From the IMG/VR virus record IMGVR_UViG_3300017903_002946, positions 16,570-80,569 of that record: 64,000 nt of DNA; one strand, 5' to 3'. The position numbers were made by a program, and so were the translations under genes. The stretch is from a virus. Its lineage: Duplodnaviria > Caudoviricetes. Under the pieces are notes generated by a model that was not told where the DNA came from, ran no database searches, and saw nothing but the letters and a program-made list of their open reading frames with translations. Shown here piece by piece: positions 46,217 through 49,642 of this stretch; the stretch's first letter is position 1, and each line of letters starts with the position of its first letter.

Positions 46217-46768
46217 GTGGATATGCCCAGCCCTAAAGGTGACCCAACTTTTATTAAAAATAAAGAGAAATATTTTATAAATGTTGCACAAACTATTGCA
46301 CAAGCCTCAACACATCCAAAATCTCCTGGAGGATGTATTATTGTGCGTGATCGAGAAATTATTGGAAATGGCAGAAGTTTATTAACTGACAGTAAAGTTG
46401 AAGTTGATTGCATTTCATATGCAGTAGCTGCTGCTGCTAAAGCTGGTACTCCAGCTATTGGCGCAGTTATATACAGCACTAGATATCCATTTTCTATATC
46501 TATTTTTCAAGCACATATGATGGGTATTCGTAAAATTGTGATACTTGCTCATGAGTGGGAGCCGTATTATCGAGAAGAATTTAGACGTGCCGGTCGTTTA
46601 GCAAGAGAATTACAAGTAGCAATTGAACCTATATTTCTAGATGAAGACCCAAGATTTACACAAAATACAAATGACAGAAACATTGATCCAGTTCTCTTCC
46701 CAGAAGCGAACCCGTTCACGCCAGATGAATATGATCCAGATAATGCAAAAGACACCTTCGATGAATGA
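46217..46768 (+). CDS. dCMP-deaminase-fold protein lacking HAE and PCxxC
   Basis: YFINVAQ..A..S...GCIIV.D..IIGNG; VDC and YPFSIS occupy the Zn-site positions. Confidence 0.65.
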   Translation: MDMPSPKGDPTFIKNKEKYFINVAQTIAQASTHPKSPGGCIIVRDREIIGNGRSLLTDSKVEVDCISYAVAAAAKAGTPAIGAVIYSTRYPFSISIFQAHMMGIRKIVILAHEWEPYYREEFRRAGRLARELQVAIEPIFLDEDPRFTQNTNDRNIDPVLFPEANPFTPDEYDPDNAKDTFDE

Positions 46769-47285
46769 ACAAATTATTTTTGACCTTGAATCCACTGGTT
46801 TATTACGACAAGGATCCCGTATTCACTGCATTGTTATGCGAAACGGTAACGATGGCGGCACTTCTGTGTTTGACCATCGTCCTGAGCAATCAATCATACA
46901 AGGAGTAAAAGAACTAGAACAGGCGGATGTATTGATTGGCCATAACATTATTGGCTATGACATCCCATTGATCAAAGAGCAGTTTCCTGAATTCAAGCCT
47001 CAAGGCCAGGCCATTGATACTCTTGTTCTGAGCCGTCTTTTTTATCCACATATTGCAGATAGAGACTACGAACGTCGTCCACACGGAATGCCACAAAGGC
47101 TGTACGGACGACATAGCCTTGAGGCCTGGGGTTATCGCCTTAAGTGCTTTAAAGGTGACTTTGGCAAGCACGAAGGCAACTGGTCTGTTTATACACCTGA
47201 GATGCTTGACTACTGCATCCAAGACACCGAAGTAACGCTCAAACTTTGGGCACTAATGAAACGTCGTATGGAAGATTACTCATGA
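46761..47285 (+). CDS. 3'-5' exonuclease half of a split family A DNA polymerase
   Basis: ExoI FDLES, ExoII GHNIIGYD, ExoIII YCIQD. Confidence 0.9.
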   Translation: MNEQIIFDLESTGLLRQGSRIHCIVMRNGNDGGTSVFDHRPEQSIIQGVKELEQADVLIGHNIIGYDIPLIKEQFPEFKPQGQAIDTLVLSRLFYPHIADRDYERRPHGMPQRLYGRHSLEAWGYRLKCFKGDFGKHEGNWSVYTPEMLDYCIQDTEVTLKLWALMKRRMEDYS

Positions 47286-48589
47286 CTATGAATGATTGTG
47301 TCTTGCTTGAAATGCAGATGGCAGAAATCATGTCACAACAAGAAGCCAGTGGCTTCCGTTTTGATGTAGCTGCTGCAGAGAGAGTGCGTGGTGAACTCCA
47401 AGAAGAAGTTACCCAACTTGAGCAATCAATTCAATCACGTTATATTTATGTACCAGGAAAAGTTTATACACCTAAACGGGCAAACAAGACTAAGGGATAT
47501 GTAGCCGGTGCTCCTTTGACGAAGCTGTTGGACTTCAACCCAACATCACGTCAACATATTGCCTGGGCATTGCAGAACTTCCGTGGAGCTCGCTTCACCA
47601 AAGTCACAGACACCGGTAAGCCCAAGGTTGATGAAGCAACCCTTTCTGAGATGCGTGACCTCGCTTTGTCTCAAGGCAACAAGCTCCTGCATGAGGAGTG
47701 TGAAATGTTCATCCGTCTGTTGACCTTACAGAAATGGTTGGGCCAGCTGTCTGAGGGGACAAATTCCTGGTTTAACACAATTGAAGATGACGGGTGTATT
47801 CACCACAGCTGCACTCTTGCGACCCAAACCGGGCGTAATGCGCACCGTGGTCCCAACCTTGGACAAGTGGTGTCCGCACCTTGGGCACGTCAGTTGTTTG
47901 TTCCACATCCTGGTCATGTCATGGTCGGGGCTGACTTGGAAGGCTTAGAGCTCAGATGCCTAGGACATTATCTATCTGTTTATGATGAAGGCTCATTTGC
48001 TGACGTTGTACTGAATGGTGATATTCACCAGCAGAATGCTGACCGTGTTGGTTGCAGTCGTAAAGAAGTAAAAACTATTACCTATGCATTCATCTATGGG
48101 GCGGGCGACCAGAAGCTCGGTCATAGCTTGCATCCTGAGCTTAGCGATGCTCAAAAAAAGCAACTAGGCAGCGAACTACGCCGTAAATTTCTTGATGCAA
48201 TTCCTGGATTGGAGCCACTTATTGATGCAGTTAAACATAAGGTTCGTGGAAGCGGTCGTCTTAGGGGGCTTGATGGGCGTCCTATATTCTGCCGTGCTGA
48301 GCACGCCGCCCTCAACTACTTACTTCAATCAGCAGGAGCCGTTTTATCAAAGCGATGGGTGGTAATTTCTCAGCAAATGCTTGATAGCGCAGGTCTTACC
48401 TACAACATTGACTACACCCGTTGTGCATACGTGCACGATGAACAGCAGCTCTCGGTTGTACCCCAAGAAGTTGATAGGATCAAAATGTTGCTAGAAAATT
48501 CGGCACCTGAAGCAGGACGTTACTATAACTTTCGTGTTCCAATCACTGCTTCTGCAGATCATGGAGAAAATTGGGCAAATACTCATTAA
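47282..48589 (+). CDS. polA: Family A DNA polymerase, polymerase half (T7 gp5-like)
   Basis: Motif A ADLEGLELR, motif B RKEVKTITYAFIYG (Tyr at the E. coli 762 position), motif C YVHDE. Confidence 0.93.
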   Translation: MTMNDCVLLEMQMAEIMSQQEASGFRFDVAAAERVRGELQEEVTQLEQSIQSRYIYVPGKVYTPKRANKTKGYVAGAPLTKLLDFNPTSRQHIAWALQNFRGARFTKVTDTGKPKVDEATLSEMRDLALSQGNKLLHEECEMFIRLLTLQKWLGQLSEGTNSWFNTIEDDGCIHHSCTLATQTGRNAHRGPNLGQVVSAPWARQLFVPHPGHVMVGADLEGLELRCLGHYLSVYDEGSFADVVLNGDIHQQNADRVGCSRKEVKTITYAFIYGAGDQKLGHSLHPELSDAQKKQLGSELRRKFLDAIPGLEPLIDAVKHKVRGSGRLRGLDGRPIFCRAEHAALNYLLQSAGAVLSKRWVVISQQMLDSAGLTYNIDYTRCAYVHDEQQLSVVPQEVDRIKMLLENSAPEAGRYYNFRVPITASADHGENWANTH

Positions 48590-48607
48590 TGTTCGCCGTA
48601 AACAACA

Positions 48608-48622
48608 GTATTTATTTATACT
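48608..48622 (+). promoter_or_regulatory. NtcA-like box overlapping a -10 hexamer
   Basis: GTA-TTTATTTA-TAC at 48608-48621; TATACT at 48617-48622. Confidence 0.5.
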
Positions 48623-48633
48623 AAAAGTAAGTG

Positions 48634-48683
48634 CGTTGAAAGTCTTTGACTTCGCAAGTAAGCCTTGAGGGCTGAAGCAACGG
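48634..48683 (+). ncRNA. Glutamine-I (glnA) riboswitch
   Basis: CGTTG/CAACG P1, AAGTC/GACTT P2, CGCAAGTA...GAAG E-loop, AGCC/GGCT P3; matches the glnA motif architecture. Confidence 0.88.
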
Positions 48684-48712
48684 AAATTCATTCACACTTA
48701 TTGGAGTACATT

Positions 48713-48883
48713 ATGTCTAACCTGACTGTACAGGGCTTACTTTCTGCCCGCCGTAAAGAGCTGCGCAATCAAGCTGAGCGTCAGCATCACATCAACAACG
48801 AACTGCAAACTATGACTTGGACTAAACAAGACAAGTCTGGAAAGTGCTACACCTATCGTGGTGTGCAGTACTGCTACAACTGA
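48713..48883 (+). CDS. Small DUF4278-like protein (56 aa)
   Basis: YTYRGVQY motif; directly downstream of the riboswitch. Confidence 0.75.
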   Translation: MSNLTVQGLLSARRKELRNQAERQHHINNELQTMTWTKQDKSGKCYTYRGVQYCYN

Positions 48884-48895
48884 ATAATATTTAAG

Positions 48896-48920
48896 GCCCG
48901 CATTATGCGGGTCTTTTTTT
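48896..48920 (+). terminator. Intrinsic terminator
   Basis: GCCCGCA-TTA-TGCGGGT followed by C and T7. Confidence 0.75.
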
Positions 48921-48961
48921 GTAATTTCCTACAATAGATAGATGGTAAATATATTAAATAG

Positions 48962-49642
48962 ATGCGTAAAGCTGGTGAACTTATCGCGCAATATTTAAGA
49001 GAAGGAAAGCTTGCAGCAAATCGCAGTGATCCAATTGGATCTGGTGGCAATGCTGTTGTCTTCGCTTCTGATATTCCTGGAAATGTAATGAAGCAATTGA
49101 GCTATCCAGATCAAGGAAAGTTTGGATTGCCGGGAGATGCTCCAAAGGTCATTGAAGAGGCCGATTTGCAAGCTGTGGCAGCTGAGATTGGACTTGCTCC
49201 CAAAGTTGCTGGTGTAGAGACGTTTCGCGGCGGTATAGGTAATCGCATTGAAATGCAAGATGTACGACCTAACTTTGAAACTCATGGTCGACGTGCTCGT
49301 GAATTCCCTTCTGGTAGAGATGCTGTACGAGTTAATCAACAGCTTGGGCAGCTTGCGTTAAAAGGCATTCGTCTAGAAGACAGGCATAATGCCAACGTTT
49401 TGTATAACAAAATGACCGGCCGTCCTATGCAGCTTGACTTTGGTATTGCCGATAAAGTTGAAGGTTCTGAACAAGTAGCAACTCTTGCTATGGCTACAGC
49501 AGAAGGCTTTGAGGCTGCTGGCTTAGATGATATTGCAAGTATTTATCGATCTACGGTTATGGACTTATTAGAGGGTGGCGATGTAGCTGAAGCTATGGAT
49601 GTAGCTAAGCAAGGCTTCAGTCGTTTACAGAAGATTAAATAA
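48962..49642 (+). CDS. Protein kinase-like protein
   Basis: GSGGNAVV loop, VMKQ Lys, EEADLQ, catalytic EDRHNAN, DFG. Confidence 0.8.
   Translation: MRKAGELIAQYLREGKLAANRSDPIGSGGNAVVFASDIPGNVMKQLSYPDQGKFGLPGDAPKVIEEADLQAVAAEIGLAPKVAGVETFRGGIGNRIEMQDVRPNFETHGRRAREFPSGRDAVRVNQQLGQLALKGIRLEDRHNANVLYNKMTGRPMQLDFGIADKVEGSEQVATLAMATAEGFEAAGLDDIASIYRSTVMDLLEGGDVAEAMDVAKQGFSRLQKIK

Follow-up and report, generated by a model that had tools for sequence, protein, structure and literature searches.

The genome of a marine Synechococcus phage carries a compact one-gene unit in which a putative NtcA operator, a glutamine riboswitch, the gene for a 56-aa protein and an intrinsic terminator follow one another. 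This unit represents a known host module in a variant form that is carried by a phage. The reading favoured on balance is that it copies the nitrogen-status module of the host, with repression by NtcA, a glutamine ON riboswitch and a protein that would act on a nitrogen-assimilation target. Judging by the literature searched, the protein family, the conservation of the box at a repressor position, the hybrid aptamer and the presence of the cassette in this lineage are new.

Layout of the unit

The record is a complete virus genome of 80,569 bp with direct terminal repeats. The window, i.e. the whole stretch of 64,000 nt that was analysed, comprises its bases 16570-80569, and positions are numbered within it. 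The unit sits 3′ of the gene for a family A DNA polymerase (47246-48589) and contains the following elements:

48589-48603, plus strand: upstream motif ATGTTCGCCGTAAAC, family consensus aTGTTCGCCgTGAAC, near-invariant in the leader alignment and spanning about -38 to -26
48608-48621, plus strand: NtcA-type box GTA-N8-TAC over the -10, putative repressor operator, from sequence and conserved position
48617-48622, plus strand: -10 hexamer TATACT, with TAnnnT invariant in 15/15 aligned loci
48632-48686, plus strand: glutamine riboswitch aptamer of type 1 (glnA) topology, from the RF01739 match and covariation
48629-48699, plus strand: leader-trailer helix AAGUG (48629-33) : CACUU (48695-99), candidate expression platform, from predicted folds
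48703-48706, plus strand: Shine-Dalgarno sequence GGAG, 6 nt 5′ of the ATG, from sequence
48713-48883, plus strand: ORF of the 56-aa protein, ATG at 48713 and TGA at 48881-48883, from the ORF and its homologues
48893-48922, plus strand: intrinsic terminator, stem-loop 48893-48915 followed by a T run

An earlier reading of the letters alone (the sequence-only reading) had described several of these elements, and all that it claimed are found where it placed them. The box overlaps TATACT, P1 of the aptamer begins at 48634, 12 nt past TAC, the ORF encodes 56 aa with a YRG motif, and the unit has a strong terminator of its own.

The terminator stem has 10 pairs, 6 of them G-C, with a 3-nt loop, and a comparable terminator lies within 70 nt of the peptide stop codon in 37 of 52 related loci. 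The terminator is predicted to close a one-gene unit. The next gene (48962-49642, 226 aa), which has faint kinase-like Pfam matches (ABC1, PI3_PI4_kinase; E ~0.04-0.07), is placed outside the unit because it is located past the terminator. The cassette terminators of many related loci have TAAC or TATC tetraloops in place of the 3-nt loop found in the window.

Phage lineage and host

The phage origin proposed for the window is upheld. The DNA polymerase is nearest to the polymerases of T7-like cyanopodoviruses (45-46% identity) and is split, as in T7-like cyanophages, into an exonuclease ORF (46641-47285) and a polymerase ORF (47246-48589), which share 40 nt but are read in different frames. 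The window also holds an integrase, an HNH gene, a SET gene and a sub-threshold NblA match. In these traits the genome agrees with the uncultured lineage of marine cyanophages that Flores-Uribe et al. described (bioRxiv 10.1101/325100); riboswitch, glutamine and NtcA are absent from the text describing that lineage. A tblastn search with a sister peptide returns 292 cultured-phage records, every one a Synechococcus phage or cyanophage. Judged from these sequences, the window phage infects marine Synechococcus.

A non-cyanobacterial host, as for OM43 and SAR11 phages, would make the logic of NtcA and glutamine synthetase (GS) inactivating factors inapplicable. OM43 phage Melnitz and pelagiphages do carry glutamine riboswitches of the RF01739 type, as the window does (PMC9004378), and a tail-fibre protein has relatives in pelagiphages. 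However, the aptamer in Melnitz and pelagiphages is linked to a tmRNA gene in phages whose hosts lack NtcA and GS, and no YRG peptide is described there (PMC9004378). With peptide-family matches in cultured phages that are exclusively cyanophages, an NblA-like gene, a polymerase that groups with cyanopodoviruses and a genome that suits the published cyanophage lineage, a host of this other kind is highly improbable.

The riboswitch aptamer

The sequence-only reading had suggested an Infernal search with the Rfam glnA model, and this search confirms the riboswitch. RF01739 matches 48632-48686 (+) over the full model (1-53) with 39.5 bits, above the gathering score of 35 bits, with E = 4.4e-5 for the window and 1.3e-8 for the genome, and this is the one copy in the whole genome. 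The three helices are P1 (48634-38 with 48678-82), P2 (48640-44 with 48648-52) and P3 (48661-64 with 48670-73). All three are recovered by RNAalifold from 12 homologous phage leaders, with compensatory changes in 8 of 12 consensus pairs. The segments CGCAAGTA and GAAG.AACGG, which hold the core bases of the three-way junction (AAGUA / GAAG), are unchanged in 15/15 aligned leaders. A match to RF01739 above the cut-off also lies directly 5′ of the peptide gene in 9 of 14 IMG/VR loci. By score and by covariation in homologues, the riboswitch is far beyond chance, and the phage leader probably binds glutamine, as predicted from its type 1 aptamer class.

Orientation of the long-range pair

According to Ren et al., as reported by Klähn et al. 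(PMC6212724), G23-C60 is a critical long-range pair of the aptamer. The window core reads CGCAAGUA...CAACGG, whereas the Rfam consensus is CGGAAGUA...GAACGC (also written CGGAAGUA...GGAACGC), and the long-range pair is C48655-G48683 in place of the consensus G/C. When mapped by way of the consensus, G23 and C60 would correspond to the two columns that differ. For evidence on this pair, viral contigs were scanned for all four pair combinations, and matches were filtered for a matching P1 5′ strand together with the P2 and P3 hairpins. The structural filter is needed because raw pattern counts are uninformative: mismatched control patterns also matched, 45 and at least 118 times, so unfiltered counts were rejected as pair evidence. 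The filter is passed by 75 C..G and 55 G..C matches, as against 0/121 for G..G and 0/45 for C..C. Since only complementary combinations pass, the long-range pair covaries, and the C..G swap is common in viruses.

The swap that the sequence-only reading had noticed is thus real, whereas its apparent peculiarity to this locus is not: C..G is widespread in phages and is also the standard orientation in the Rfam glutamine-II family (RF01704), to which the riboswitches of marine picocyanobacteria belong, with the consensus ...CGCAGUU...GGAACGG.... All 29 readable type 1 copies in 151 cyanobacterial genomes are G..C, in contrast to the window. The phage aptamer joins a type 1 fold to the orientation that this pair has in the type 2 class of its host, and by having both it bridges the two glutamine riboswitch classes. 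No type 2 riboswitch is present in five small 'cyanobacterial' genomes.

An initial view of the C..G type 1 variant as phage-only was softened, given that C..G is standard in type 2 and is also seen, in a permuted form, in MAGs of marine gammaproteobacteria. Among the at least 120 cellular C..G matches listed, those that pass the filter are two phage-like contigs. The gammaproteobacterial MAGs (L418:4932-5063, L439, L468) carry an apparently circularly permuted glutamine aptamer with C..G orientation, in which P1 is closed by a loop and P2 is open, and which occurs in tandem in L418. Some contigs binned as cellular hold the phage-type cassette, i.e. L491 (4.7 kb, from a 'Methanobacteriota archaeon' MAG) and L502/L539; these are probably mis-binned phage DNA or prophage.

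Among cultured phages, the WH7803 myovirus ACG-2014f (isolate Syn7803C90) has a cassette in which a TTGACA-17-TATAAT promoter precedes a C..G aptamer, followed by the gene of a 55-aa peptide that carries the annotation hypothetical, and then by a terminator. Its aptamer (L602:285-376) is apparently nested or in tandem, with a second CGTTC...GGAACGG unit within P3, and the stretch matches both RF01739 (41.1 bits) and RF01704 (32.1 bits).

Promoter and NtcA-type box

Within the window alone, the box is not beyond chance. GTA-N8-TAC occurs 17 times as compared with 11.3 expected, and 17 copies are reached in 5 of 100 shuffles. The box is significant only because its position is conserved among related loci. 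Of the unique C..G riboswitch loci whose upstream sequence is long enough, 69 in all, 34 have a perfect box, every one 23-28 nt before P1 with a mode of 26 nt, which is also the offset in the window; the background is 1.6% per 80-nt window. Across related loci GTA and TAC are fixed while the N8 sequence is unconstrained. A second motif, GTTCGCCgTGAAC (13 nt), ends exactly 13 nt before the -10 hexamer in 27/27 viral relatives, with a background of 0.4% per 62-nt window, and the 69 loci divide into 27 with both motif and box, 28 with neither and 14 with only one. In the hexamer TATACT, TAC lies two bases later, and GTA shifts along with it so that N8 is kept. Because GTA follows TAC while GTTCGCCgTGAAC stays fixed to the hexamer, the N8 spacing is under selection of its own.

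The window promoter has no canonical -35, and a simple promoter scan makes no call at the site. The transcript start is predicted at ~48629-48630. About half of the phage loci are without the box and the upstream motif and have TAGAAT or TACAAT there, often adjoining TATAAATA. In boxless cassettes of this kind (L016, L020, L042, L054, L064, L101, L110, L129), TAGAAT/TACAAT is followed by TATAAATA abutting P1. This is the T4-late-promoter word, and a late transcript from there would be without the P1 5′ strand.

The host modules provide the comparison for the function of the box. A perfect box is found in 27 of 28 host glutamine-II loci, where it ends 1-4 nt (mostly 1-2) before the riboswitch, just past the -10 and across the predicted transcription start. 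Klähn et al. (2018, PMC6212724) state that NtcA represses when its site is at or close to the -10, and they describe a site of this kind for the IF17-like gene of Prochlorococcus MED4; the location of the host box agrees with the repressor position noted there. The phage box differs in overlapping the -10, whereas that of the picocyanobacterial modules lies between the -10 and the riboswitch. The box was also considered as an NtcA activator site, which was rejected since the -41.5 geometry would place the -10 within the aptamer; given that activator geometry is impossible, NtcA, if bound to the box, represses. The hosts also have an upstream motif, tGTATCgnnnTGAAC (GTA-N8-AAC; loci L570-L601), ~23 nt 5′ of the -10, which resembles the phage GTTCGCCgTGAAC and is located at NtcA activator-site distance.

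An unlikely alternative is that the box forms part of a conserved promoter, which RNA polymerase or some other factor would recognize jointly with the GTTCGCC...GAAC motif, so that control would be by glutamine only. Such a promoter would explain why TAC belongs to the invariant TAnnnT of the -10, why the box is not enriched in the window by itself and is always accompanied by a second motif at a fixed distance, and why about half of the relatives, including the cultured myovirus with TTGACA-17-TATAAT, are without it. It leaves unexplained that the distance of 8 nt to GTA is kept where TAC has moved within the hexamer, that N8 is free to vary between a fixed GTA and a fixed TAC, and that nearly all host modules hold a perfect box. 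On this evidence GTA-N8-TAC over the -10 is likely to be an NtcA repressor operator, and the NtcA-like box of the sequence-only reading gains a repressor position that is conserved in phage relatives and host modules alike.

Expression platform

In 31 of 42 unique related leaders, a helix of 6-9 bp pairs the long-range-pair G and downstream bases with the Shine-Dalgarno (SD) sequence and spacer. Typically, the pair G and the next 5-8 bases (GGAAAUUUC) form one strand, and the SD and spacer just 5′ of the AUG (GGAGUUUCC) form the other. Compensatory variants of this anti-RBS helix exist, e.g. GGAUUAUU:AGUAAUCC. The SD of the relatives is an aligned GGAG, GAGG or a weaker GAG-containing purine run, and modelled RBS accessibility in relatives climbs when the pairing bases are withheld, e.g. 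from 0.24 to 0.39. As the pair G is shared with the SD helix, ligand binding and RBS occlusion are mutually exclusive in most relatives. Type 1 and type 2 glutamine riboswitches have been published as ON switches (PMC6212724, PMC6698751), and the modelled anti-RBS helix of the relatives fits these proposals.

The subclade of the window is built differently. It lacks the anti-RBS helix, with pairing there of 4 bp at most, and the modelled accessibility does not change (0.52 vs 0.51). Present instead are an invariant trailer, GGAAUUCAUUCACACUU (entered as GGAAAUUCAUUCACACUU in the list of parts), and the leader-trailer helix AAGUG:CACUU, which in predicted folds encloses aptamer and trailer. The sequence of this helix is invariant in the subclade and hence has no covariation, while P2 and P3 there covary. 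The 17-nt trailer is invariant though the coding sequences are only ~50% identical. Two other candidate platforms, a hairpin around the start codon (48706-48733) and pairing of a P2 strand with the SD, were rejected because neither is conserved, the former as judged in relatives.

These features bear on whether the aptamer of the window subclade is a relic that no longer switches, with an early or middle promoter driving the peptide constitutively. An RF01739 score near the cut-off (39.5 vs 35) and the missing anti-RBS helix and accessibility change would suit a relic. Yet the core junction nucleotides are invariant in 15 loci and the trailer has outlasted the divergence of the coding sequence; taken with the compensated changes in P2 and P3, this invariance argues for continued selection on the RNA, and a relic is considered improbable.

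The encoded protein and its family

Homologues of the 56-aa peptide number 20 in a large protein collection and 14 loci in IMG/VR, with G8, R18, E22, G43, Y46, Y48, R49, G50, Y53 and Y55 invariant. As far as its sequences indicate, the family is clearly under selection. An AF2 model (pLDDT 72.8) consists of a basic helix (residues 2-41) and a C-terminal hairpin, CYTY-RG-VQYC. Two nearly invariant cysteines, C45 and C54 (window 48845-48874), flank the YRG hairpin only in the subfamily of the window; the two-YRG family has H-G-T-F. The proteins of the related cassettes have 48-66 aa, a basic N-terminal helix and one or two YRG hairpin motifs, and are encoded directly behind a C..G aptamer. YRG is present in 64 of the 69 ORFs behind C..G aptamers, twice in most. 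The window family and the two-YRG phage family align well in hhalign (98.2%, E 3e-14). A whole-library profile search gives 16 matches, mostly to the same family. Peptide searches of PDB (by profile), NCBIfam and the ESM Atlas, and tblastn of cultured phages with the window peptide, give no usable result.

The sequence-only reading had called the peptide DUF4278/GifB-like, which holds in one respect, the YRG repeat that it has in common with the glutamine synthetase inactivating factor IF17. The DUF4278 assignment does not hold: the window peptide and 28 family members have no match to PF14105 in Pfam at E<=10, and the two-YRG phage family reaches 13.9-19.9 bits in 4 of 6 members, below the cut-off of 25.3 bits, with no match in the other 2. 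When compared by hhalign with IF17, by way of an IF17/IF7 reference alignment made up of cyanobacterial sequences, the peptide aligns over its 11-residue YRG unit only (74.5%, E 2.7e-5, 64% identity to repeat 1). In this alignment no counterpart of the arginine-rich, IF7-like C-terminal segment is detected in the peptide. The N-terminal helix was compared with the IF7 region as a possible IF7-like GS-binding helix and was rejected (probability <1%). In IF17 the literature assigns GS binding to the IF7-like segment, and the DUF4278 part is reported to be dispensable for GS inactivation and to promote stability (PMC6316151). Because only the YRG unit aligns and the helix is dissimilar to IF7, the peptide is IF17-like only loosely, and GS inhibition by it is hypothetical.

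A link to the host is provided by one picocyanobacterial genome (L597), in which a type 2 riboswitch and an NtcA box precede the gene for a homologue (93.2%) that matches the two-YRG phage family over its full length. In L597 (1046-1117 and 1305-1581) this homologue lies ~380 nt from a tRNA gene, and a genomic island is possible.

The window protein would most likely bind some protein of nitrogen assimilation in the host. The foremost candidate for this target is glutamine synthetase, at a probability well short of even. A serious contender, itself rated somewhat under an even chance, keeps the nitrogen gating and gives the peptide another role, either at a non-GS target such as PII/PipX-type signalling, a transporter or a protease adaptor, or in the phage programme, e.g. 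in lysis-lysogeny. The undetected IF7-like segment, the dispensability of the DUF4278 part for inhibition (PMC6316151) and the integrase and NblA of the lineage are in keeping with such a role. By contrast, the only characterised YRG-repeat relatives behind glutamine riboswitches are GS inactivating factors, and the basic helix would suit the electrostatic binding mode of these factors (PMC6316151), both of which point by analogy to GS. IF-type control of GS in marine picocyanobacteria has been argued against by earlier work (PMC6316151).

Proposed mechanism

The preferred reading of the unit as a copy of the host's nitrogen-status module can be set out as a series of steps. The host RNA polymerase would use the promoter with the -10 TATACT and start the transcript a few bases before the aptamer. 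In a nitrogen-poor cell, NtcA with 2-oxoglutarate would occupy the box across the -10 and block transcription. In a transcript that is made, glutamine binding by the leader would turn translation on, by analogy with gifB and the picocyanobacterial modules. In most relatives, the glutamine-bound aptamer would free the SD and spacer from the pair-G helix. The leader-trailer helix appears to replace the anti-RBS helix in the window subclade, and because of this replacement the step from glutamine to translation is there proposed by inference only. Since the phage carries a nitrogen-sensing module of host type, the 56-aa protein, with its basic helix and YRG hairpin, would probably be made only in a nitrogen-rich, i.e. 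nitrogen-replete, cell. The protein belongs to a family that occurs in cyanophages as well as in picocyanobacteria and has a distant tie to IF17-like proteins.

Comparison with known systems

The picocyanobacterial glutamine-II (DP, RF01704) modules with IF17-like DUF4278 small proteins, e.g. PMM1846 of Prochlorococcus MED4 (PMC6212724, PMC6316151), have the same three-part logic: GTA-N8-TAC at a repressor position, a C..G aptamer and a small YRG-repeat protein of ~33-60 aa. The phage aptamer is a type 1 three-way junction with a P3 hairpin, whereas that of the host is a type 2 pseudoknot. A long N-terminal helix and a single YRG unit set the window peptide apart from the picocyanobacterial small proteins, as does its failure in the DUF4278 model. 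The gifB gene (IF17) of Synechocystis resembles the phage unit in its type 1 aptamer (RF01739) and in the combination of NtcA repression with a glutamine ON switch, which in the phage would be analogous. The YRG repeat of the window is almost identical to repeat 1 of Synechocystis IF17, although IF17, at ~150 aa, has three such repeats and, at its C-terminus, an IF7-like region for GS binding that is missing from the phage peptide.

Among phages, glnA RNA motifs are already on record for the genomes of T4-like cyanophages (Rfam; S-CREM1 paper, PMC9964418). These phages share the riboswitch family with the window, and a cassette of this kind is found in cultured myoviruses of Synechococcus. The literature found on the glnA RNA of T4-like cyanophages (PMC9964418) does not name the downstream gene family, the box or the pair orientation, and the window copy belongs to a different, 80-kb lineage with integrase and NblA. 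NtcA sites in cyanophages are known, and NtcA-activated phage promoters have been proposed (PMC3037559). The gating suggested here would have the opposite sign to these promoters.

Significance

The module has been captured by several phage lineages, including WH7803 myoviruses and the 80-kb lineage with integrase and NblA. Because the cassette is kept under selection, its small protein is argued to be useful during infection. The phage gene would be gated by two host nitrogen signals, 2-oxoglutarate via NtcA and glutamine via the RNA. Whether and how marine picocyanobacteria control GS via small IF17-like proteins is an open question (PMC6316151), for which the phage YRG family may serve as a compact test system. 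A tentative extension is that Synechococcus phages widely carry 'viral inactivating factors', i.e. helix-plus-YRG mini-proteins made under nitrogen-replete conditions from an NtcA operator and a hybrid riboswitch, which would retune or shut GS or another nitrogen hub. If true, such viral inactivating factors would be the first functional handle on the IF17-like proteins of picocyanobacteria.
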